Origin: Candidatus Saccharimonadota bacterium
GTDB taxonomy: Bacteria > Pseudomonadota > Gammaproteobacteria > Enterobacterales > Enterobacteriaceae
Length of the DNA stretch: 32,000 nucleotides
Reading direction: 5' to 3'
NCBI RefSeq assembly: GCF_000185985.2
Contig: NC_014909.2
Coordinates: forward strand, 60,001-92,000
In this document: positions 13,828 through 31,529 of the stretch, in pieces
How positions within the stretch are numbered: position 1 is the first letter of the stretch
How the letters are laid out: the number at the start of each line of letters is the position of its first letter
The notes under the pieces: generated by a model
What the model saw: only the letters and a program-made list of their open reading frames with translations
The model's database searches: none
Told to the model about the DNA's origin: nothing
Made by a program: the position numbers and the translations under genes

Positions 13828-14148
13828 TATCTTTGTATATTATAGAATAATATTATTGTAGTCGATGATTTAGCTTATATTTAATTATGAGAGTTTATTT
13901 TGTTTAGTTTATTAAATACAAGTTCATTATATAATTATATAAGTTAAACTAATTTGTTGCTGGAAGAATTGATATGTGTTGTTTTAAAAATAAATCATAT
14001 TTGTATGTGTATGGTATTTAATATGTATGCAGTGTTATATATGTATGTATAACAAAGTTGATTTTGGTATGTAAATTGAGTTATGTATAATGAGTACATT
14101 ATGTATGTGAATCATGATAAATTTTGATAGGTGTGTATATTATTTTAT

Positions 14149-14883
14149 ATGATCGCTATAATACGTGTGGTTTTAATTTTAATTATATCAATTAATATTT
14201 GCGTATTTGGTATAATTTATTGTTTATTAGTTCCTAGGCAATTGCGTTATATTGATATTTTTAGTCATTTATTTGGATGTATGGCGCCTATTTTTGGAAT
14301 TCAACTTGAAATACGAAAATCTTCAGATATCTTATTGCCTAAAAATTGCGTCTATATTTCTAATCATCAAAATAATTATGATATGGTGACTGTATCTAGT
14401 GCAGTGCAATCAAATACTGTAACAATAGGCAAAAAAAATTTATTATGGATTCCATTATTTGGTCAATTGTATTGGTTAAGTGGTAATATATTGATTGATC
14501 GAACATATAATAGTGTACAGAAAACTCGTAGTATTTTAACTAAAATCATTAAAACTATTAGAATAGATGGTATGTCAGTATGGATTTTTCCAGAAGGAAC
14601 ACGAAATCAAGGCAGAGGATTGTTGCCTTTTAAAATAGGAGCGTTTTATGCAGCAATTTTTTCTAAAGTGCCCATCGTTCCGATTTGTGTTTCAGATATT
14701 TCTAATAATAAAATTAGATTAAATCGTTGGTCAAATGGATTAGTAATAATTGAAATCATGCCTTCTCTGAAAACATGTCAATATAAACTTAATCAAGTTC
14801 GTATTATTGCTGCGCATTGTCATAAAATTATGAAATTGAAAATTGATAAGCTTAATGAGGAAGTAATGCTCCGAGAAAATTAG
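14149..14883 (+). CDS. plsC: 1-acyl-sn-glycerol-3-phosphate acyltransferase PlsC (ATG 14149 preferred over the track's GTG 14131)
   Basis: MIAIIRVVLILIISINICVFGIIYCLLVPR aligns with the E. coli PlsC N-terminus. The acyltransferase motifs NHQNNYDM and FPEGTRNQGRGLLPFKIGAF are present. Confidence 0.93.
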   Translation: MIAIIRVVLILIISINICVFGIIYCLLVPRQLRYIDIFSHLFGCMAPIFGIQLEIRKSSDILLPKNCVYISNHQNNYDMVTVSSAVQSNTVTIGKKNLLWIPLFGQLYWLSGNILIDRTYNSVQKTRSILTKIIKTIRIDGMSVWIFPEGTRNQGRGLLPFKIGAFYAAIFSKVPIVPICVSDISNNKIRLNRWSNGLVIIEIMPSLKTCQYKLNQVRIIAAHCHKIMKLKIDKLNEEVMLREN

Positions 14884-14894
14884 ATTTTTTATAC

Positions 14895-14942
14895 AAAACG
14901 GATTAGATCGAATTTAATTTTAAATGCGATCTAATCCGTTTT
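14895..14942. terminator. Bidirectional intrinsic terminator between convergent plsC and metC (16-bp perfect stem, 16-nt loop)
   Basis: aaaacggattagatcg (14895-14910) is the exact reverse complement of cgatctaatccgtttt (14927-14942). There is a T-run after the right arm on the + strand and an A-run before the left arm. The right arm and part of the loop lie inside the last 7 codons plus stop codon of metC. Confidence 0.72.
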
Positions 14943-16095
14943 TTAAGTCTTGAATTAAATCTGTATAATGTTCTAATCCTACATGTATTCGTACTAATGT
15001 TCCTGTAAAATCTAATAGTCCGACTGGTCGAATAGAATTTAATTCTTCTATTTGATTTGTTATAATTAATGATTCAAATCCTCCCCATGAATACGCCATT
15101 TTAAAGTATTTAAAATTATTAAGAAAATTTGATAATTGGACGTTGGTGAGTCGTTGTTTTAAAATAAAGGAAAATAGTCCACTAGATCCACTAAAATCTC
15201 TTAAGAAATATTCATGTCCCCTACAAACAGGGAGAGCTGGGTGGTTTACTTTATAAACTTTAGGATGATCAGTTAACCAATGAGCTATATTTAATCCATT
15301 TTCTTCATGTTGTTTTAATCTAATGTACAGTGTTCGTAATCCTCGAATTGCCATGTATGCAGTATCAGCATCAACGGTTTGTCCCATTAAGCAAGCATGT
15401 TCTTTTAATTGTTTCCAACATCTTAAATTAGATACAGCGATCCCTAACATTCCATCAGAATGTCCCAAAATATATTTTGTGCCAGATTGAATAGAAATGT
15501 CTACTCCTATATTTATAGGTTTTAAAAAGATTCCTGCAGACCAGGTATTATCTAATAGTATAACGATATCTTTCTTTTTTGTTCGTGCTGATTTAATAAT
15601 TTCAGGAATATTTTGTATTTCCATAGTAATAGAACTGGGAGATTCTAGAACGATTAATTTAGTGTTATCTTGAATGAGGTGAGCAATATTAACACCAATT
15701 AATGGATCAAACCAACTAATTTGAATGTTCATTTTTTTCGAGATAACTCGACAAAAATTTTGAGTAGGTTCATATGCTGATCCTGTAATTAAAATATGAT
15801 CTCCTTCTGAAATAAAAGCAAGGATTGAATGAGTAATAGCAGCCGTGCCGCATGGATACAATACACACCCTGATCCATTTTCTAGTTCTATCATAGCTTC
15901 TTGTAAAGCAAAATGAGATAAAGTACCATATCTACCATAGAATAATTTTCCATTCATCCGATTTTTGAAGGCATATTTTTTTTGTTCAACGGAATTAAAA
16001 ATTATTGAGGATGCTCTTTGAATAATAGGATTCACTGTTCCTTGTGTAAATTTTTTATTTCTTCCAGATGTAATTAGTTTGGTTTCATCTTTCAT
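14920..16095 (-). CDS. metC: Cystathionine beta-lyase MetC
   Basis: 391-aa ORF. VNPIIQRASSIIF, the PLP-lysine context SGTKYILGHSD, YSWGGFESLI and VRIHVGLE are colinear with E. coli MetC. Confidence 0.94.
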   Translation of the reverse strand: MKDETKLITSGRNKKFTQGTVNPIIQRASSIIFNSVEQKKYAFKNRMNGKLFYGRYGTLSHFALQEAMIELENGSGCVLYPCGTAAITHSILAFISEGDHILITGSAYEPTQNFCRVISKKMNIQISWFDPLIGVNIAHLIQDNTKLIVLESPSSITMEIQNIPEIIKSARTKKKDIVILLDNTWSAGIFLKPINIGVDISIQSGTKYILGHSDGMLGIAVSNLRCWKQLKEHACLMGQTVDADTAYMAIRGLRTLYIRLKQHEENGLNIAHWLTDHPKVYKVNHPALPVCRGHEYFLRDFSGSSGLFSFILKQRLTNVQLSNFLNNFKYFKMAYSWGGFESLIITNQIEELNSIRPVGLLDFTGTLVRIHVGLEHYTDLIQDLKNGLDRI

Positions 16096-19563: not shown

Positions 19564-19631
19564 ACTTACTAAGTCGGACGCTGAGATATGAATTTAAAAT
19601 ATTTATTTGTCCACTGTCCGGCTTAGTAAGT
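19564..19631 (+). repeat. Inverted repeat downstream of groEL (16-bp stem: 15 Watson-Crick pairs plus 1 G.U; 36-nt loop); possible 3' hairpin or terminator of groESL mRNA
   Basis: acttactaagtcggac (19564-19579) pairs with gtccggcttagtaagt (19616-19631). There is no clean U-tract after it. Confidence 0.5.
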
Positions 19632-20300: not shown

Positions 20301-23300
20301 TTAATATGTTGGTTTGATTTCGTTCAAGTGAGTATTTTGATTGTACGAAGGAAAATCAACAGTCGTCATATGTTCTTTGCATATATAAATGGGAAAACAT
20401 GGTAGTTTTAATCCGTTGTTTTTATAATATTCTATAATACTTATATTTATTTGATGGCGTAATGGAACACGAGATTTTATATCTGAGGTATATATGCGAA
20501 TTTCAAGGATAGGTAGTCCTTGTTGAAAATCTACTAAATATACTTCTGGAGGGGGAGTATCTAAAGATAAAGGAGAGCTCTTTATGATTTCCATAAGCAC
20601 TTGAATCATTTTTTTTGTATCTATTTGAATGGGTGTAGGAATTCGTAAAATTACTCGCGTTGTTGTATCAGATAAAGACCAATTAATAAATTTTTTTGTA
20701 ATAAATTCTTTATTAGGCACAATAATTTCTTTATGATCCCAATCAGTAAGTATTGTTGCACGGATGTTTATACGTGTAACGTTTCCAGTAAAATTACGCA
20801 TAGTTATGGTATCTCCAATCCGGATTGGTTTTTCAAACAAAATCATTAACCCAGAAATAAAATTTGCAAAAATTTCTTGTAGTCCAAATCCTAATCCTAC
20901 TCCTAAGGCTGCAATTAACCATTGAATTTTCACCCATTCTATTCCTATTAGAGAGCATCCTGTTAATCCACCTAATACCATTAAAATATATTTAGTTAAC
21001 GTAATGATGGCATATTCTGTGCTAGGAGTAAAATTTAAGTATTGTAATAGTGTTAATTCTAAAAAAGCCGGTAATTTTCTCACTGTGATCGTGGTGATGA
21101 TAATCACCACGATCACAGTGAGAAAATTATTTAATGTTATAGGTTGAATATTTTCAATACCTTTAATAGTGGATTTTACATCCCATAATGTAATATTTTC
21201 TAAAAAGGAAAATGCGAATCGTAGTTCAGACCACAATAAAGATATTAAAATGAGAGCTGTTAAAGTAACAATAGATTTTATTAATTGTAATGATTGAGCA
21301 CTTATAGAATCAAGATCTAAAAATTTTTTATGATTATTAATAATAATTGGTCGTTCTTTTGTTATTAATTTGTGTTTTGAATGAGATTGTTTATAGTGTT
21401 TGGTTATAAATTGAATCCCTTGGTTTTCTTGAGATCTTTTAAATGCAATACGCCTACGTTGAATCAACATCCATCTTCGAATAATATAATATGTTATGAG
21501 TAATAGAACCCAAATAAATAATGATTTTTCTAATCGTATTAATATTTCTTGAGCGACAGATAAGTAACCAATTGCACAAGAGATAGCTGAAATAATTGGA
21601 GCAATTATCATAATATTCCATAAAGATTGATTAATTATATTATTAGAGGAATCATGTTTATTTAAGTACAAAGGTAATCCAGAACGTTTTAAGTTAATAG
21701 TAATATATGTTAAATACATACATAATATAAAAAAGCATAATCTCCCTAAAGTATTGGAAAATTCTCGATTATTATAATGATTAAATACAACACAAGATGT
21801 GATTAGAATTATAATGATAGTTGTTGACCAGAAATAATTTTTAGAAAAGACTTGCTGAATTCTTTTTTTAGACCATCCGAAATGAACAATAAATAATCCT
21901 TTAGGAGATGCAAAGTACCCACTGGTTATGAAAATCCATAACATAAAAGCTGTAGCATTCATTCCATTTCCGATAGAAACGATTATTGGATAGAGCCAAC
22001 AAGTATGATTTAAATTATATCCTATACTGATCCATAGTATTGGTATGGGTAACGCTATAAATATAGTACTCCATATATTATAAAAAGTTATTAAAAAGTT
22101 ATCTTGATTTACTTTGCCAACATAATTACTAGTTGTTTCTAAAAATTTATAATAATAATGACGTGCTCCAAAATGTAATCCTAGCGATATTATAAAACAA
22201 AATATCATTGGTATTAATGTTGATTGATTTGTAACAATCATATAAAATGCAGATTTTATTTGGTTATGAAAAGAATGGTTGGTTAAGAGTTTACATATGT
22301 CTTGATATACGTATCGCGGGTAAGATATAGTAATAGGACAAATATCAGCTGTCCAGAATAAATAACGATGAGTAGCTTGTTGTACCGCTTGTAGTGAGTC
22401 TTTGAGTTGATCATAAAGTAATTTTAATTTTGTTAACTCAAGGATTTGATTATCATAATTATTTAATAAAGATGTAATAAGTTCTCGTTGTGTATGTAAT
22501 TGTTTTGTAAGAATACTTTTTTGTATAAATGTTAACTCTAATTCGTTGTCTTGTTTGCTATTTAATATGAGATCAGGAATTTTGTTTATATAATTTTCGT
22601 ATTGTAATCTTTTTGCTTTTAATTGAGCCATATCATTATCTAATTGTTGAAATTTAGGTTTTTTTGGCAAATTAGTAACTTGAGAACGTAATGTTTCTCC
22701 AAGAATTGGAGATTTATTTATCCATTGTGATTGCTCAATTAGATTAGAAAAAACTTGATTTACTTGTGAAATATGAGTTTCAATTTCTCTTTGTCTTAAA
22801 ATAATGTTATTCATGTCTTGAGTTTGCTGCGTAATTAACAATGAAAGATCATGATTCATATATAATTGGATTTTAATAGATTTTGGTAATGTATCATGTT
22901 GTTCTTTTAAAATTTTTTCAGTATAAGCTATTGTTTGATCGGCTTCTTTATGACGAAGATGAGTTAATTGATTTTTTAATATTTTTAGTAAATTATTTGT
23001 ATAATTATATTTTTTTTTAATTAATGTTATTTTTAATTTAATTAGCTCTTTACGATTATTAGAGCTTAATTGAGCTAATTCTAATTCAACTAATTTTAAT
23101 CGATTAGCAGAACGTTCCGCTTGAAATGAAATAAATTGAGCGTATTCTATATTAGAATTAGTAAATAAAATTTGTTGTTGCTCTAGGTTATGTAATATAT
23201 GTTTGATAGTAACTTGTTGTTGAGGTAATAGTCTTAATGCTTCATAAATAGAATGCAATTGATCTTCTTCTTGAACAAGTTGTTCTGATAAATTTATTAA

Positions 23301-23693
23301 TTGGTTATTAACCTGGAATATTTTTTGTTTTAGCTCTTGGATAGTTAAATTTTGATATATATTGGTTGGTTGTTCGTTTATGTTATTGTATTCTTTTTGT
23401 AATTTCAGAATAATATATGAAAAATTATTAATAATATGTTGGTATTCGTTAATTTTTTCATTAGATGTTTTTTTTTCAGCAATAAAATATAAGGCAGATT
23501 TCAAAAGATTTATAGTAGTTTTTTGATTATTATTAATATGATCTAATTTTTCTATTTGTTGTAAATCTTTTTTAATTTTTTCTTCGTTTAAAAAATTACA
23601 GGAAGATGCTTTTGTGATGAATGTACAACATGCGCAGATATTGATGTATATTATTGCAAGAATAAATTTCGATATATATTTGTGTAGACCCAT
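20301..23693 (-). CDS. mscM: Large MscS-family mechanosensitive channel, MscM (YjeP)-type (MscK/KefA family)
   Basis: 1130-aa ORF with a signal-like N-terminus, a long coiled-coil periplasmic domain, about 11 TM helices, and an MscS core (LGVGLGFGLQEIFANFISGLMILFEKPIRIGDTIT, IIVPNKEFITKKFINWSL). It lies immediately downstream of psd, as yjeP does in E. coli. Confidence 0.87.
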   Translation of the reverse strand: MGLHKYISKFILAIIYINICACCTFITKASSCNFLNEEKIKKDLQQIEKLDHINNNQKTTINLLKSALYFIAEKKTSNEKINEYQHIINNFSYIILKLQKEYNNINEQPTNIYQNLTIQELKQKIFQVNNQLINLSEQLVQEEDQLHSIYEALRLLPQQQVTIKHILHNLEQQQILFTNSNIEYAQFISFQAERSANRLKLVELELAQLSSNNRKELIKLKITLIKKKYNYTNNLLKILKNQLTHLRHKEADQTIAYTEKILKEQHDTLPKSIKIQLYMNHDLSLLITQQTQDMNNIILRQREIETHISQVNQVFSNLIEQSQWINKSPILGETLRSQVTNLPKKPKFQQLDNDMAQLKAKRLQYENYINKIPDLILNSKQDNELELTFIQKSILTKQLHTQRELITSLLNNYDNQILELTKLKLLYDQLKDSLQAVQQATHRYLFWTADICPITISYPRYVYQDICKLLTNHSFHNQIKSAFYMIVTNQSTLIPMIFCFIISLGLHFGARHYYYKFLETTSNYVGKVNQDNFLITFYNIWSTIFIALPIPILWISIGYNLNHTCWLYPIIVSIGNGMNATAFMLWIFITSGYFASPKGLFIVHFGWSKKRIQQVFSKNYFWSTTIIIILITSCVVFNHYNNREFSNTLGRLCFFILCMYLTYITINLKRSGLPLYLNKHDSSNNIINQSLWNIMIIAPIISAISCAIGYLSVAQEILIRLEKSLFIWVLLLITYYIIRRWMLIQRRRIAFKRSQENQGIQFITKHYKQSHSKHKLITKERPIIINNHKKFLDLDSISAQSLQLIKSIVTLTALILISLLWSELRFAFSFLENITLWDVKSTIKGIENIQPITLNNFLTVIVVIIITTITVRKLPAFLELTLLQYLNFTPSTEYAIITLTKYILMVLGGLTGCSLIGIEWVKIQWLIAALGVGLGFGLQEIFANFISGLMILFEKPIRIGDTITMRNFTGNVTRINIRATILTDWDHKEIIVPNKEFITKKFINWSLSDTTTRVILRIPTPIQIDTKKMIQVLMEIIKSSPLSLDTPPPEVYLVDFQQGLPILEIRIYTSDIKSRVPLRHQINISIIEYYKNNGLKLPCFPIYICKEHMTTVDFPSYNQNTHLNEIKPTY
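21072..21129. repeat. Perfect palindrome (27-bp stem, 4-nt loop) embedded in frame in the mscM CDS
   Basis: taattttctcactgtgatcgtggtgat (21072-21098), gata (21099-21102), atcaccacgatcacagtgagaaaatta (21103-21129). The arms are exact reverse complements. The region encodes NNFLTVIVVIIITTITVRKL of a TM helix. Confidence 0.97.
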
Positions 23694-23751: not shown

Positions 23752-23818
23752 TAAAAATACTGATAGGCAACAACCTTAATTTTAATAGAATTGATGTTGT
23801 TGCCTATCAGTATTTTTA
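23752..23818 (-). terminator. Strong hairpin (22-23-bp perfect stem, 21-nt loop) between psd and mscM; probable intrinsic terminator or attenuator
   Basis: aaaaatactgataggcaacaac (23753-23774) is the exact reverse complement of gttgttgcctatcagtattttt (23796-23817). A U-rich tract follows on the minus (sense) strand. It lies 30 nt after the psd stop and 59 nt before the mscM ATG. Confidence 0.72.
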
Positions 23819-26629: not shown

Positions 26630-27127
26630 ATGAGACAATACGTATTAATTTTATATAATGAATCTCAAACTTTATTATTAGGAGCTAATTTAGCGAAAGT
26701 CTGTGTGCTGGGTTGTATTTTTTATTTACATGGGAATATAGGATCTGGAAAAACAACATTATGTAGAGGTTTTTTAAAAGCTTTAGGTTATACAAAATAT
26801 GTAAAAAGTCCAACGTATACCTTAGTAGAGTTTTATTCGTTATCTAATAAACATATTTATCATATTGATTTATATCGATTACATTCAAAAGATGAATTAA
26901 TCAATATGGGTATTTATGATTGTTTTGATAATAAATCTATCTTATTAATAGAATGGCCAAAATTAGAAGTTGATTGTTTACCTAATCCAGATATTTCAAT
27001 AAGTATTGATTATTATAAGCACGAAACGTATCGACAAGTAGTTATTGTTACTTGTAGTAATATTGGCCAAATAATAGTAAATACTGCATTACATGCTGGA
27101 TATTTTGAGTATGAAGTTAAAAAATAA
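26630..27127 (+). CDS. tsaE: tRNA threonylcarbamoyladenosine biosynthesis ATPase TsaE (YjeE)
   Basis: 165-aa ORF. The Walker A motif GNIGSGKTTLCRGFLKALG, plus VKSPTYTLVEFY, YHIDLYRL and LIEWP, are colinear with E. coli TsaE. Confidence 0.92.
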   Translation: MRQYVLILYNESQTLLLGANLAKVCVLGCIFYLHGNIGSGKTTLCRGFLKALGYTKYVKSPTYTLVEFYSLSNKHIYHIDLYRLHSKDELINMGIYDCFDNKSILLIEWPKLEVDCLPNPDISISIDYYKHETYRQVVIVTCSNIGQIIVNTALHAGYFEYEVKK

Positions 27128-28475
27128 AATAATATTTTTCATATTAATATTATCAAAATGTTTATTTTTTAATATAATTTATGCTTCGACAGCATTGCAT
27201 TCGATTTATATAAAAAATAATATACGTCAATCTACAGTGATTATATATTGCAATACTACTGTACCTGAATATACAGTTTTTTATCTACATCATCCAGAAA
27301 GAATAGTAATAGATTTATTAAATATTCCTAATGTACAAAAAAAAAATACATTTCCGATAGCTTGCAATAAAAATAATTTAATTAAGTGTGTTCGTTCAAA
27401 TACTTCTGTAAATTGTAATGGAACACGTATAGTATGTGATTTAAATCATCCATCTTATATAAAAGTAGTAATTCAAAAAAAAATAAAAAAAAACTATCAA
27501 GTTATCTTAAAAATTGTAAGAAAAACATCAATTGCATCTCATTTAAATGTACGTAATTTGTATAATAATATTATTCAACGTCAAAAGTCATGCATTACTA
27601 CTATTTATTCAAAATTAATGGTAAGTAATGGAGATACTGACTCAGTAAAAGGAATAAATAATAGAAATAGTATTAGCCTTAGTAGTTCTAAGCATTATTT
27701 TAATAATAATAGTGGTGTTTATCATAGTAAGAGTCAAAATCAATTCCCTATTATCGTGGCGATTGATGCGGGTCATGGGGGACAAGATCCGGGCGCAATA
27801 GGTTTTCATGGAACATATGAAAAAAATATTACTCTTAGTATTGCAAAAAAATTAAAGAAATTATTAGATACTGATTTAAGATTTAAAGCTGTTATGATTA
27901 GAAATGGAGATAATTTTGTATCAATTACAGATCGAGCAGATTTAGCTAGAAAAAAAAGAGCAAATATATTAATTTCGATTCATACAGATGCTTCCGTAAA
28001 TTCTAAGGTTAAAGGAGCTTCAGTATGGGTTTTATCTAATCACAGAGCACATATAGAAACGATTCATTGGTTAAAGTGTAAAGAAAAATATGCAGAACTT
28101 TTAGGAGGATTGGGTCAAATATTAAATAATTATCGAAATGATCCATATTTTCAATATTTAATTTTAGATTTGCAGTTTGGGTATACTCAAAAGGCTGGGT
28201 ATAATATTGCGATGCACATGTTACATCAATTGAAGAATGTTGGAATTTTGCATAAAGATATCCCTGAATATTCTAGTTTTGGTGTATTAAGATCTCCTGA
28301 TATTCCATCTATTTTAGTAGAAACTGGATTTATTAGTAATTTTAAAGAAGAGAAGTTACTTATAACTGATACGTATCAGAGAAAAATAGCTCAAGCTTTA
28401 TATATGGGATTACGTGCGCATTTTTTAGTATTATTGCATCAGCATCAGCAAAAAATAATGTCAAACCATATATAA
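27111..28475 (+). CDS. amiB: N-acetylmuramoyl-L-alanine amidase AmiB (ATG 27111 preferred; the track ORF starts at ATG 27093); overlaps the tsaE 3' end
   Basis: From 27111 the N-terminus MKLKNKIIFFILILSKCLFFNIIYAS looks like a signal peptide. The catalytic domain IVAIDAGHGGQDPGAIG, LISIHTDA, GASVWVLSN, LDLQFG, FGVLRSPDIPSILVETGFISN is colinear with E. coli AmiB. Confidence 0.92.
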   Translation: MKLKNKIIFFILILSKCLFFNIIYASTALHSIYIKNNIRQSTVIIYCNTTVPEYTVFYLHHPERIVIDLLNIPNVQKKNTFPIACNKNNLIKCVRSNTSVNCNGTRIVCDLNHPSYIKVVIQKKIKKNYQVILKIVRKTSIASHLNVRNLYNNIIQRQKSCITTIYSKLMVSNGDTDSVKGINNRNSISLSSSKHYFNNNSGVYHSKSQNQFPIIVAIDAGHGGQDPGAIGFHGTYEKNITLSIAKKLKKLLDTDLRFKAVMIRNGDNFVSITDRADLARKKRANILISIHTDASVNSKVKGASVWVLSNHRAHIETIHWLKCKEKYAELLGGLGQILNNYRNDPYFQYLILDLQFGYTQKAGYNIAMHMLHQLKNVGILHKDIPEYSSFGVLRSPDIPSILVETGFISNFKEEKLLITDTYQRKIAQALYMGLRAHFLVLLHQHQQKIMSNHI

Positions 28476-28681
28476 TAAATATTATAAGATATATATATAA
28501 ATTTAGGATGAATTATTGTTGTATAATTTTTTAAAATAAGCGGTTTAAATTAATCATTTACAAATTTTGTTATATTTTAATAATACGGATAATGTTTTAT
28601 GCATTAGGTAAGAATAAAGAAAAATATAATATAATATTTGATACACATTAATTGTGTAAAAAAATATACTTTGACTACAAC

Positions 28682-29677
28682 ATGCAACAAGATAAAAAAA
28701 ATAATATTATTATAAAGCAGAATATTTCTTTCCCGTTAATTATTTTTATAATGGGTCCTACAGCTTCTGGTAAAACGAGTTTAGTTATTGCTTTAAAAAA
28801 ACGAAAATTAAAAATTAAAATTATTAGTGTTGATTCAGCTTTGGTATATAAAGGTATGAATATTGGTACATCTAAACCTTCTGTGTCTGAATTAGAAATT
28901 GCTCCACACAAACTTATAGATATTCGCGATCCATCGGATTGTTACTCTGTATCGGATTTTTATTGTGATGTAATTGTAGAGATAAAAAAAATTATAAAAT
29001 CTGGTTATGTTCCTGTATTAGTAGGAGGAAGTATGTTGTACTTTAAAGTATTGTTGCAAGGTTTGTTAATATTACCAAAATCTGATGAAGTCATTCGTAA
29101 TAATTTAAAATGTATTGCTCAAAAAATAGGTTGGATGAATGTATACAGAAAGCTTCAATATATTGATCCTGACGTGTCTAGAGCTATTCATTATAATGAT
29201 CATAAAAGAATAATTAGAGCATTGGAAATATTTTTAATTTCTGGTAAAACGTTAACAGAATTGAAATCTAAATATAGATCTGCTACTTGTTTTACATCAC
29301 AAAATAGAATATTACAGTTTGCCATTATGCCGTCAAGTCGAGAAATTTTACATAATCGTATTGAAAGGCGTTTTTATAAAATGTTAGAAATAGGATTTGA
29401 AAATGAAGTAAGAGTATTGTTTTCTAGATCGGATTTACATAATGATAAATCAAAAGCAGCAATTTCTTGTGTAGGGTACCGTCAAATGTGGGAATATTTA
29501 TTAGGTAAAATTGAATATAATGATATGATATACCAAAGTATTTCAGCAACTAAGAGAGTAGCGAAGCAGCAGCTTACGTGGCTTCGATCTTGGTCTGATT
29601 TATATTGGGTAAACAGTGATTGTATATCTTGCGCCGTTGATGAAGTGTTATTGATTTTATCTCAGCAAATATATTGA
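28682..29677 (+). CDS. miaA: tRNA dimethylallyltransferase MiaA (ATG 28682 preferred over the track's TTG 28652)
   Basis: IFIMGPTASGKTSLVIAL, ISVDSALVYKGMNIGTSKP, APHKLIDIRDPS, VLVGGSMLYFKVLL and VGYRQMWEYL are colinear with E. coli MiaA. Confidence 0.94.
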   Translation: MQQDKKNNIIIKQNISFPLIIFIMGPTASGKTSLVIALKKRKLKIKIISVDSALVYKGMNIGTSKPSVSELEIAPHKLIDIRDPSDCYSVSDFYCDVIVEIKKIIKSGYVPVLVGGSMLYFKVLLQGLLILPKSDEVIRNNLKCIAQKIGWMNVYRKLQYIDPDVSRAIHYNDHKRIIRALEIFLISGKTLTELKSKYRSATCFTSQNRILQFAIMPSSREILHNRIERRFYKMLEIGFENEVRVLFSRSDLHNDKSKAAISCVGYRQMWEYLLGKIEYNDMIYQSISATKRVAKQQLTWLRSWSDLYWVNSDCISCAVDEVLLILSQQIY

Positions 29678-29909
29678 TATCCAATAAAATTAGTTATACT
29701 TGTGAAGTTAATTGATATTCTTGTTTATTTTATTCGTAAATGTTTATTTTTTATATACAAGAGAAAGTAAAGATATATTTATATTATAGTATAAATAATT
29801 GATTTTAGTGTGTGATTAGAGCTAAAGAAAGCAATGTTACATTTATTGAGTGAGTTAAATAGTAAGATATTTGTAGCAATGAAATTGTTGATCTTTTTTT
29901 TATTTTTGA

Positions 29910-30088
29910 TTACAATGCACAACTATAGTTAAAATAGTGGTAGTTTTGATTGTGATTTATTTCTATAATTGTTAAGTCAAGGTTGTTTTATTATTTATTT
30001 TGAAAATAAAGAGGAATTTGATTTTTTTCATGTAAAAACGGTTTATGTTAGAAGTGTGATTGAATGTATTATTAATATAATTACTTAA
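29910..30088 (+). pseudogene. hfq: Probable decayed relic of hfq (no start codon, in-frame stop, frameshift, indels)
   Basis: It sits exactly where hfq lies in E. coli (miaA-hfq-hflX). The frame from 29910 reads LQCTTIVKIVVVLIVIYFYNC*, compared with Hfq [23 protein letters not shown]. The shifted frame from 29972 reads LSQGCFIIYFENKEEFDFFHVKTVYVRSVIECII, compared with [33 protein letters not shown]. DNA-level matches include gaggaatttgattttttt vs GAGTCTTTTGATCAGTTC and aaaaacggttta vs AAAAACACGGTC...GGTTTA. Confidence 0.45.
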
Positions 30089-30242
30089 AAATAAATATTT
30101 TGATCGAATAAGTAAAATTAACTGATGTATAAGTGCAAATATTGTAAATAATAACTTTTGAAAATTGAATTAATAAAATAGTTGAGGTTTTTAGATAAAA
30201 TTTGAATTTTTATTATTGATATAATGATGTGGATAGTGCTAT

Positions 30243-31529
30243 TTGATAACAGTAAATAAAATAAACAAAAATGCTATATTAGTGTATGTAGTACTTTCTA
30301 AATCAGAAGATATACCTTGGAATATAAAAGAGTTATTAGATTTAGCATATTCTTCTGACATTCAAGTATTGGATACTTTACTTGTAAAAAATTTAAGAAT
30401 AGTTAATTCTAAATATTTTATCAGCAAGGGAAAAATATTAGAGCTTGAATCGAAGATTAAAGAGAATTTAGCATCTGTTGTATTGTTTAGTTGTATTTTA
30501 TCCCCCAATCAAGAACGTAACTTAGTTAAGTTATTCGGTTGTAAAGTGATAGACAGAAATCAGCTGATTCTTAATATTTTTGCTGATCGTGCTCGTACGT
30601 ACGAAGGTAAATTACAAGTACAATTAGCACAGTTACGTTATTTAAATTCTCGTTTAACTCATGAGTGGAATCATTTAGAGCGTCAAAAAGGAGGAATTGG
30701 GGTAAGAGGTGGGCCAGGAGAAATGCAGTTAGAAAATGATCGTCGTTTATTGAGTAAACGTATATTTCGGGTTTTATCGGATTTAAAAAAAATAGAGAAT
30801 CAAAGAAAACAAAATAGACGTCATAGAGTAAAGATTGGTATTCCTACTATTTCTTTAGTAGGTTATACTAATGTTGGAAAATCTACTTTATTTAATATTA
30901 TGACATCTGCGCACGTTGATACAGCTAAAAAATTATTTGTTACTCTTGATCCGACATTTAGAAGGATTGGGAAAAGAAAGAAGTCAAGCGCTATACTAGT
31001 CGATACAGTAGGTTTTATTCAAAATTTACCGAAAGATTTAATAACTTCTTTTAAATCTACATTACAAGAAACGGTAGAATCAACTTTATTATTACATGTG
31101 GTAGATGTGTCTAGTAACAAAATTAATCAACATATCAAGACAGTGAATGATATTTTAAGAGAAATAAATATTAAAAATATCCCTGTTCTTTTAATTATGA
31201 ATAAAATTGATTTGATAGATAAAATAGAACCTCATATTGATCGTAATTTTGATGGGAGACCGATTCGAGTGTGGTTATCTGCTCATAATAGAGTAGGTAT
31301 AGATTTATTAAATAAAGCTATTGATGAGTTATTGCCTAATAATATGGTTTCTTATAAATTAATGGTACCAATAAATAGTAGTTTATATCAGAAATTATAT
31401 AAATTACAAGCGGTCACTCGATTTTATCATGGTAATGAAAATATGGCGAAATTAAAAGTAGATTTATCTTTTGAGGATTGGAATTATTTAACAAAATGTC
31501 ATGGTTCTTTACATGATTATATTGTGTGA
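30243..31529 (+). CDS. hflX: GTPase HflX (TTG start)
   Basis: 428-aa ORF. RARTYEGKLQVQLAQLRYL, HLERQKGGIGVRGGPGEMQLENDRR, VGYTNVGKSTLFN, DTVGFIQNLP and LIMNKIDL are present. The N-terminal spacing to AILVYVV equals that of E. coli MFDRYDAGEQAVLVHIY. An in-frame TAG at 30234-30236 excludes any upstream ATG. Confidence 0.94.
   Translation: MITVNKINKNAILVYVVLSKSEDIPWNIKELLDLAYSSDIQVLDTLLVKNLRIVNSKYFISKGKILELESKIKENLASVVLFSCILSPNQERNLVKLFGCKVIDRNQLILNIFADRARTYEGKLQVQLAQLRYLNSRLTHEWNHLERQKGGIGVRGGPGEMQLENDRRLLSKRIFRVLSDLKKIENQRKQNRRHRVKIGIPTISLVGYTNVGKSTLFNIMTSAHVDTAKKLFVTLDPTFRRIGKRKKSSAILVDTVGFIQNLPKDLITSFKSTLQETVESTLLLHVVDVSSNKINQHIKTVNDILREINIKNIPVLLIMNKIDLIDKIEPHIDRNFDGRPIRVWLSAHNRVGIDLLNKAIDELLPNNMVSYKLMVPINSSLYQKLYKLQAVTRFYHGNENMAKLKVDLSFEDWNYLTKCHGSLHDYIV

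Follow-up and report, generated by a model that had tools for sequence, protein, structure and literature searches.

How does a protein-coding sequence come to be a perfect palindrome, and what keeps it in that state? The question is raised by mscM, a gene of a Blochmannia-type ant endosymbiont (genome GC content of about 27%), as found in a 32,000-nucleotide (nt) stretch of contig NC_014909.2 (positions 60,001 to 92,000 of the forward strand). This whole stretch is called the window below, and coordinates refer to it. A perfect 58-nt palindrome lies within mscM, in its reading frame. Judging from the orthologous sequences, the hairpin is real and old, its arms having co-evolved for a long time, and the best-supported history is one in which complementarity built up in steps within Blochmannia and was afterwards maintained by changes coordinated between the arms, not one of a single recent copying event.

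The palindrome and its host gene

As indicated by its domains and structural matches, the product of mscM is an MscM/MscK-type mechanosensitive channel. It carries the Pfam domains PF12795, PF12794, PF21088, PF00924 and PF21082 (MscS_porin, MscS_TM, MS_channel/MscS core), matches the solved structures of MscM (E 1e-122) and MscK (E 4e-73), and is 100% identical to its own cluster and 60-66% identical to Blochmannia MscM. The coding sequence and the parts of the palindrome are arranged as follows.

20301-23693, minus strand: mscM coding sequence, an open reading frame (ORF) of 1130 amino acids whose homologues are named MscM
21103-21129, minus strand: 5' arm on the gene strand; third base of N855, codons N856-V863 and first two bases of I864
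21099-21102, minus strand: loop of 4 nt; third base of I864 and codon I865
21072-21098, minus strand: 3' arm on the gene strand; codons I866, T867, T868, I869, T870, V871, R872, K873 and L874

An inverted-repeat scan found the arms to be complementary over 27/27 pairs (100%), the coordinates, the sequence, the 27-bp stem and the 4-nt loop in the mscM frame being those given in the original prediction, which had been made from the DNA letters alone. The loop reads GATA on the plus strand and TATC on the gene strand. Read in the direction of the gene, the 5' arm is T AAT TTT CTC ACT GTG ATC GTG GTG AT, with N856, F857, L858, T859, V860, I861, V862 and V863 encoded between N855 and I864, and the 3' arm is ATC ACC ACG ATC ACA GTG AGA AAA TTA; the peptide N855-L874 encoded in frame is NNFLTVIVVIIITTITVRKL. 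The segment is indeed richer in GC than the gene average (36% versus 26%), and of its 20 codons, 11 have G or C in third position, where 3.3 would be expected (P = 3e-4).

Among the short-range perfect inverted repeats of the 32 kb, the mscM palindrome is the longest, and no second copy was found in the window with up to three mismatches allowed. Its chance expectation, rightly described beforehand as negligible, amounts to about 2e-9 such repeats in 32 kb of random sequence of the window's composition, and the probability of 27/27 pairs conditioned on the amino-acid sequence and the codon usage of the gene is about 1e-4. The folding energies, the calculation of which had been proposed, lie far beyond those of shuffled sequences: in a 98-nt context they reach -44.7 kcal/mol for RNA (z = -13.4) and -31.2 kcal/mol for DNA (z = -12.0), with 0/200 shuffles as good in either case.

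In the stem, third codon positions stand opposite third positions, and first positions stand opposite the second position of the partner codon. Because of this geometry residues are paired as well as bases, namely Phe (TT) with Asn or Lys (AA), Leu (CT, CTN) with Arg (AG, AGA), Thr (AC) with Val (GT), and Ile with Ile, and the helix can be read as the two arms F-L-T-V-I-V-V-I and I-T-T-I-T-V-R-K.

An ancestral transmembrane helix

The segment N855-L874 aligns without gaps to every one of about 90 orthologues, and the palindrome is thus neither an insertion nor a replacement; on the evidence of this alignment, it is the ancestral transmembrane (TM) helix itself. The earlier suggestion that it had replaced the homologous helix had to be abandoned, no indel being present relative to any orthologue and 18/20 residues being identical in the homologous peptide of B. 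floridanus, NAFLTVIVVIIITTITVRNL. The corresponding peptide of free-living Enterobacterales is GAVLIAILVFIITTQLVRNL, and alignment with E. coli MscS places residues 855-874 in the N-terminal half of the lipid-facing TM1-equivalent helix. As to which arm is ancestral, a point that had been put forward for checking against orthologues, the 3' arm on the gene strand (ITTITVRK) is the more ancestral one, with ITT..VR kept from free-living orthologues, and the 5' arm is more derived, 5/8 of its residues differing from the free-living consensus VLIAILVF.

Pairing across orthologues

The orthologous DNA comprised B. floridanus (L001; BX248583), ten Blochmannia contigs from Logan assemblies of SRA data (L081-L086, L089-L092), B. 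vicinus (L087), the Blochmannia of C. modoc (L088) and about 70 sequences of Sodalis, free-living Enterobacterales and other symbionts. The Blochmannia other than B. floridanus were obtained by exact-protein look-up; a scan of the genome collection gave only B. floridanus for this genus. Counted as Watson-Crick pairs at the 27 homologous positions, pairing is distributed as follows.

Window: 27/27 pairs
L082 and L090: 25/27 pairs (24 contiguous)
L086: 24/27 pairs and one G.T
B. floridanus: 23/27 pairs and two G.T
L091: 22/27 pairs
Sister subclade (L081, L083-L085, L089): 17-21/27 pairs
Camponotus-clade Blochmannia (B. vicinus, C. modoc symbiont, L092): 13-17/27 pairs
Free-living relatives, Wigglesworthia and Westeberhardia: 7-13/27 pairs, equal to their null
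Arsenophonus (L056): 15/27 pairs, equal to its null

With the amino acids and codon usage of each lineage given, P for the pairing is 6e-3 in B. floridanus and at most 4e-4 in L082, L086, L090 and the window. Folding energies in the six hairpin lineages range from -28.6 to -43.4 kcal/mol, against synonymous-codon nulls of about -11 +/- 4.5 (P <= 3e-4 each); for the five lineages other than the window, RNA folding gives about -29 to -35 kcal/mol. The Camponotus-clade lineages fold at -4.7 to -7.2 kcal/mol, at their null. B. floridanus is the sister of the window in the MscM tree (87% bootstrap); this node and that of the subclade in which the hairpin decayed (100%) were the only ones used, the deep-node bootstraps being unreliable through a rooting mismatch. 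The presence of homologous hairpins in relatives makes the structure older than the split of several lineages. One subclade shows its decay (ACC to ATT, AGA to CGN), basal or Camponotus-clade Blochmannia and other symbionts carrying mscM never had it, and for these reasons it is considered dispensable. As an observation on one of these proteins, MscM of L091 (P0010) has a two-residue insertion directly before the hairpin region (GIDNINIQP versus GVDNIQP), resembling a 6-nt tandem duplication.

The rise of complementarity can be followed at first and second codon positions, where the pairs number 7/18 in free-living relatives (chance level), then 9-11, 13-14 and up to 16-18/18 in the hairpin lineages; shuffling the order of the codons yields 8-9/18, with P <= 2e-4 for the hairpin lineages. 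The relatives therefore carry an imperfect inverted repeat and the derived state is the more complementary one, as would be seen in a quasipalindrome perfected by template switching. The original prediction had proposed that a template switch copied one arm from the other and was tolerated by the TM helix, and had named independent, non-complementary arms in orthologues as what would speak against it. The two halves in free-living relatives are homologous to the arms and pair at only 7/18, and with the stepwise rise to 16-18/18 the version with one recent event falls, while template switching tolerated by the helix stands as the best-supported mechanism.

The stem of the window is longer by 3 bp at its base than those of its relatives, which start at codon 857. 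Two codons account for the extension.

21126-21128, minus strand: codon N856 (AAT); ACA, GCA, TCA or ATA in other Blochmannia; adds two pairs with L874 (TTA)
21075-21077, minus strand: codon K873 (AAA); Asn (AAT/AAC) in all other orthologues examined; its A pairs with T of N856

The cost of this extension was the replacement N873K, that is, the loss of an otherwise invariant Asn.

Covariation of the arms

In a 14-lineage alignment (A2), 82.3% of cells are paired, compared with 76.4 +/- 0.9 in shuffles (0/500), and 27 cells are changed on both sides, compared with 11.5 +/- 2.6 (0/500). The double changes occur in nine stem pairs. Slid registers pair only 31-62% of cells, versus 82% in the true register. 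At least five pairs show purine-pyrimidine swaps, such as G:C to T:A or A:T to T:A, for which no route through a G.U intermediate is possible. Between the cores of the window and B. floridanus, 5/6 of the differing third-position pairs changed on both sides, the codon pairs being CTC/GTG versus CTT/GTA, ACT/ACA versus ACC/ACG, GTG/ATC versus GTT/ATA, ATC/ACG versus ATT/ACA, and GTG/ACC versus GTA/ACT. The coupling extends to nonsynonymous change: V860 (GTG) faces T870 (ACA) in the window and B. floridanus, where L082, L086, L090 and L091 have I or M (ATT/ATG) facing M (ATG). Matched reverse-complement changes in the two arms, transversions included, are what template switching in a quasipalindrome is expected to leave.

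The pace and quality of the pairing are also informative. Over the 15 pairs of hairpin lineages, the stem shows 100 synonymous differences; at the rate of the same amino acids in the rest of the gene, 74.8 would be expected. This lack of a slowed synonymous rate counts for copying, because compensation through deleterious intermediates should run slower than neutral. The best stems are nearly devoid of G.U pairs, while the genuine terminators of the window are merely 91-92% paired. Mismatches in hairpin lineages, read in the sense orientation, are G.T four times and A.C once, numbers too small to separate the RNA from the DNA level.

The loop varies among lineages (TATC, AATC, TACA, TGTA, TACC). 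In alignment columns 42-45, TACA (L082, L084) and its reverse complement TGTA (L085, L086, L091) occur in two separate subclades, which could reflect inversion of the spacer by template switching; the ATA intermediates of L083 and L089 also permit stepwise point mutation.

Proposed template switching on a permissive helix

The favoured explanation, to which a little better than an even chance is given, is recurrent RecA-independent quasipalindrome correction acting on a permissive TM helix, with a hairpin that is not kept for function. During Blochmannia evolution, the codons of the TM1-equivalent helix of MscM would have turned into a quasipalindrome, the arms of which then evolved in concert. 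In replication, the nascent strand would fold back on the existing stem and one arm would be copied from the other (intrastrand template switching), a point mutation in one arm being thereby erased or transferred to its partner in a single step; the stem may also lengthen at its base by copying. Purifying selection would let through only those outcomes that a lipid-facing helix tolerates, that is, exchanges among I, V, T, M, F and L. The window lineage would then represent the most perfected version (27/27, with the 3-bp extension at the price of N873K), and the stable mRNA hairpin a by-product, which may affect expression without being the cause of the palindrome.

The genetic background of these bacteria and the behaviour of quasipalindromes elsewhere are consistent with such copying. 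Blochmannia underwent an ancestral loss of recA, and most of its lineages lack mutS (PMC4389277). The window, for its part, has no mutL at the syntenic position, which lies between amiB and miaA. In E. coli, template switching within quasipalindromes does not depend on RecA, and lacZ reporters put its rate at about 2-4e-8 per generation (PMC6357072). Template switching has also been invoked to explain why perfect inverted repeats are conserved in Proteobacteria (PMC5941160), how multi-base compensatory changes arise in RNA stems (PMC8794818) and, in yeast genes, how amino-acid replacements come to be clustered (PMC8604942). The total input of point mutations into 54 bp is of the same order as the rate of quasipalindrome switching. 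Palindromes known for their instability in E. coli are far longer than 58 bp, and the earlier inference from the persistence of the mscM palindrome to SbcCD and the repair repertoire of the genome is weak.

Several observations weigh against recurrent copying. We infer the mechanism from the pattern alone, and the lineages that make up this pattern are partly dependent, with identity at fourfold sites of 0.54-0.61 versus 0.35-0.38 for random sequence. The 3-bp extension requires at least three nucleotide changes and is unexplained by any single copying event. Third positions carry G or C in 42/120 cases in the hairpin lineages, where about 21 are expected, compared with 25/160 against 24 in the lineages devoid of the hairpin. 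Part of this excess is forced by Met ATG in one clade; the rest is not predicted by unbiased copying and points to a correction step with a bias or to selection for a stable stem. Finally, a general excess of perfect inverted repeats within coding sequences was not seen in the 20 ORFs of the window (11 versus 8.6 for arms of at least 8 bp), where the next-longest such arm measures 10 bp. With no such excess, no pervasive drive is visible, and the mscM case would be a rare runaway.

Alternative explanations

The main rival holds that the hairpin is selected at the RNA or DNA level, and that selection on pairing and stability forced coordinated synonymous and conservative nonsynonymous changes; it is a genuine possibility, although its probability falls clearly short of even. 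Candidate roles are an RNase III target tuning the level of mscM mRNA, a translation pause during insertion of the upstream TM segments and a block against antisense transcripts that enter from efp, the convergent gene, and template switching may have provided the double mutants of such a selected structure. The retention of pairing in six lineages with strong covariation speaks for this explanation, as do the enrichment of paired third positions in G or C in the hairpin-bearing lineages only (in a gene with 13-17% GC at third positions), the singular position of the palindrome as an outlier among the coding repeats of the window, the mismatches in the sense orientation, few as they are (G.T 4 versus A.C 1), and the argument of Williams and Wernegreen that the long palindromes of Blochmannia would not persist unless selected (PMC3017870). 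The perfect 27-bp stem at -44.7 kcal/mol is long enough for an RNase III substrate (some 20 bp or more of uninterrupted double-stranded RNA), which speaks of capacity only; rnc does not lie in the 32-kb window. A stem of this predicted stability could also slow ribosomes. In its more specific form, that of a lineage-specific regulatory element within the coding sequence, for example a double-stranded RNA switch sensed by RNase III or ribosomes in which pairing and G:C stability dictated the residues of the TM1-like helix, the explanation is judged less likely than not. A strict Watson-Crick stem of 24-27 bp exceeds structural need (the true terminators being 91-92% paired) and would be hard to hold in an endosymbiont of small population size, the evolution of the stem is not slower than neutral, and many pair changes involve transversion swaps. 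Moreover, one subclade has lost the hairpin, Camponotus-clade Blochmannia and other symbionts with the same gene never had it, the loop is not conserved, and the 3-bp extension gave up an otherwise invariant Asn. As for transcription termination, a simple scan does report a terminator-like element on the plus strand, with the tail AAAATTATTTAA, but there is no sense-direction U-tract and the polarity of the tracts is wrong for a terminator, the sense-strand U6 run beginning 5 nt past the 27-bp stem and 12 nt past its G+C-rich core.

The remaining explanations carry far less weight. Chance combined with coding constraint, by which an AT-rich genome and an Ile/Val/Thr-rich helix would have arrived at a lucky perfect state with no maintaining process, is improbable. 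The amino-acid sequence alone does yield a null mean of 18-20/27 pairs in these lineages, and sliding the register in phase still leaves 50-62% of cells paired; against this stand the P values of at most 4e-4 in four lineages and 6e-3 in a fifth once amino acids and codon usage are given, a codon order that is itself palindromic (P <= 2e-4), double-sided changes exceeding those of all 500 shuffles, and other AT-rich symbionts that have the same helix and remain at their null. Very improbable is an assembly or chimeric-read artefact that happened to preserve the frame, an option raised in the original prediction. One 722,585-bp contig is the sole recorded source of the exact protein, the exact 44-nt core had no match in a metagenome collection, and palindromes are known to have hampered Blochmannia assembly (PMC3017870). 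Nevertheless, 18/20 residues are shared with B. floridanus with no indel relative to any orthologue, and a homologous hairpin exists in a complete genome of the Sanger era (BX248583) and in four separate SRA-derived assemblies. An artefact is ruled out by these homologous hairpins and their folding in independently assembled relatives, five of which have 22-25 of the 27 pairs with frame and peptide conserved. Mobile palindromic elements are known to insert in frame into genes, and an insertion of this kind (Rickettsia palindromic element, REP/MITE type) is the least credible origin of all: the gene shows no length difference in gap-free alignment with about 90 orthologues, the palindrome is single-copy in the window at up to three mismatches and unlike the other long hairpins there, and the encoded residues are homologous to the ancestral helix.

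Other candidate functions were also considered. A Rho-independent terminator was rejected: on both strands TTTT precedes the stem and AAAA follows it, a reversed polarity, and the scan match, confined to the antisense (plus) strand, is lax and has a weak tail, where the true terminators nearby show an A-tract, a stem and a T-tract. No match to Rfam 15 was found at 21072-21129 at the gathering threshold, the window containing RNase P RNA and three tRNAs only, and no X XXY YYZ slippery heptamer for programmed -1 frameshifting was found upstream of the stem when read by eye.

Genomic surroundings

The gene order around the palindrome is groEL, efp (convergent), mscM, psd and orn. Three further hairpins were noted in the window, and no similarity was seen between the other long hairpins there and the mscM palindrome.

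23752-23818: arms of 33 nt, 91% complementary, loop of 1 nt, in the order A-tract, stem, T-tract; between psd and the mscM start, just downstream of psd
14892-14945: arms of 26 nt, 92% complementary, terminator-shaped; between convergent plsC (14131-14883, plus strand) and metC (14920-16095, minus strand), overlapping the metC 3' end
19564-19631: arms of 16 nt, 94% complementary, 36-nt spacer; between groEL and efp, probably the groESL terminator

The first has the shape of a classical intrinsic terminator, possibly bidirectional, and mscM would therefore form its own transcription unit. Together with the hairpin at 14892-14945, it fits the long intergenic palindromes described for Blochmannia.

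The enterobacterial cluster amiB-mutL-miaA-hfq-hflX is represented here only by amiB (27093-28475), miaA (28652-29677) and hflX (30243-31529). Neither mutL-like nor hfq-like frames were found in the spacers 28476-28651 (176 nt, 15% GC) and 29678-30242 (565 nt, 20% GC), and both genes are therefore missing from their syntenic sites. As called, tsaE (26630-27127) and amiB overlap by 35 nt, and the amiB start may lie further downstream. For a 183-amino-acid ORF at 847-1398, beside the RNase P RNA gene (58-492), NCBIfam gave no match at E 1e-20.

Relation to known systems and significance

The closest experimental parallel is offered by the quasipalindrome hotspots of E. coli (the Ripley model; QP5/QP6 of Lovett in lacZ, and thyA), where, as proposed for mscM, an imperfect repeat is perfected by RecA-independent copying of one arm, at rates (about 2-4e-8 per generation) high enough to match point mutation in about 54 bp. 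The reporters record single laboratory events in engineered or short repeats, whereas in mscM the process is only surmised, from the co-evolution of the arms over tens of millions of years in a natural, essential-looking coding helix of an endosymbiont. Lavi et al. (2018; PMC5941160) attributed the conservation of perfect repeats above expectation to preferential correction by template switching, as is done here, but their repeats are non-coding with arms below 20 bp (mean of about 6 bp), while those of mscM are 27 bp long, in frame and paired through sequence turnover. The one-step multi-base compensatory stem changes described by Monttinen and Loytynoja (2022; PMC8794818) are likewise comparable, although found in rRNA genes. 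Abraham and Hazkani-Covo (2021; PMC8604942) showed how arm homogenisation gives clustered nonsynonymous and parallel changes that need no adaptive explanation; their yeast events span at most five residues in strains, compared with about 17 codons of one TM helix across several bacterial lineages in mscM.

Within the same genus, Williams and Wernegreen (2010; PMC3017870) counted 6-20 long palindromes per Blochmannia genome, thought to need an active force. All but two are at least partly intergenic and resemble terminators or stabilisers, as do those at 23752-23818 and 14892-14945; the mscM palindrome differs from them in being wholly coding and perfect and in its reversed tract polarity. Rickettsia palindromic elements are likewise translated, but they are multi-copy mobile insertions that add residues, whereas the mscM palindrome is single-copy, adds none and is made of an ancestral helix. 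It can thus be viewed as an unusually extreme instance of inverted repeats kept perfect by template switching, a phenomenon already described; what is unusual is that it is in frame, 27 bp in length and old, and that the protein has been visibly shaped by it.

In this respect the locus provides a natural example of unusual clarity: self-complementarity of the nucleic acid, and not protein function, appears to have steered the choice of residues in a TM helix, about 17 codons being locked in a "palindromic code" from which the coupled replacements and the loss of an invariant Asn follow. If the structure were instead a selected element, an RNA structure would have written the sequence of a tension-sensing helix over tens of millions of years. 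Covariation, usually taken as proof of a functional RNA, may arise in a genome lacking recA and mismatch repair, where copying is at least as good an explanation, and this calls for caution in structure-prediction pipelines and in tests of positive selection. With six hairpin lineages, one clade losing the hairpin and several that never had it, Blochmannia mscM offers a system for separating drive from selection.

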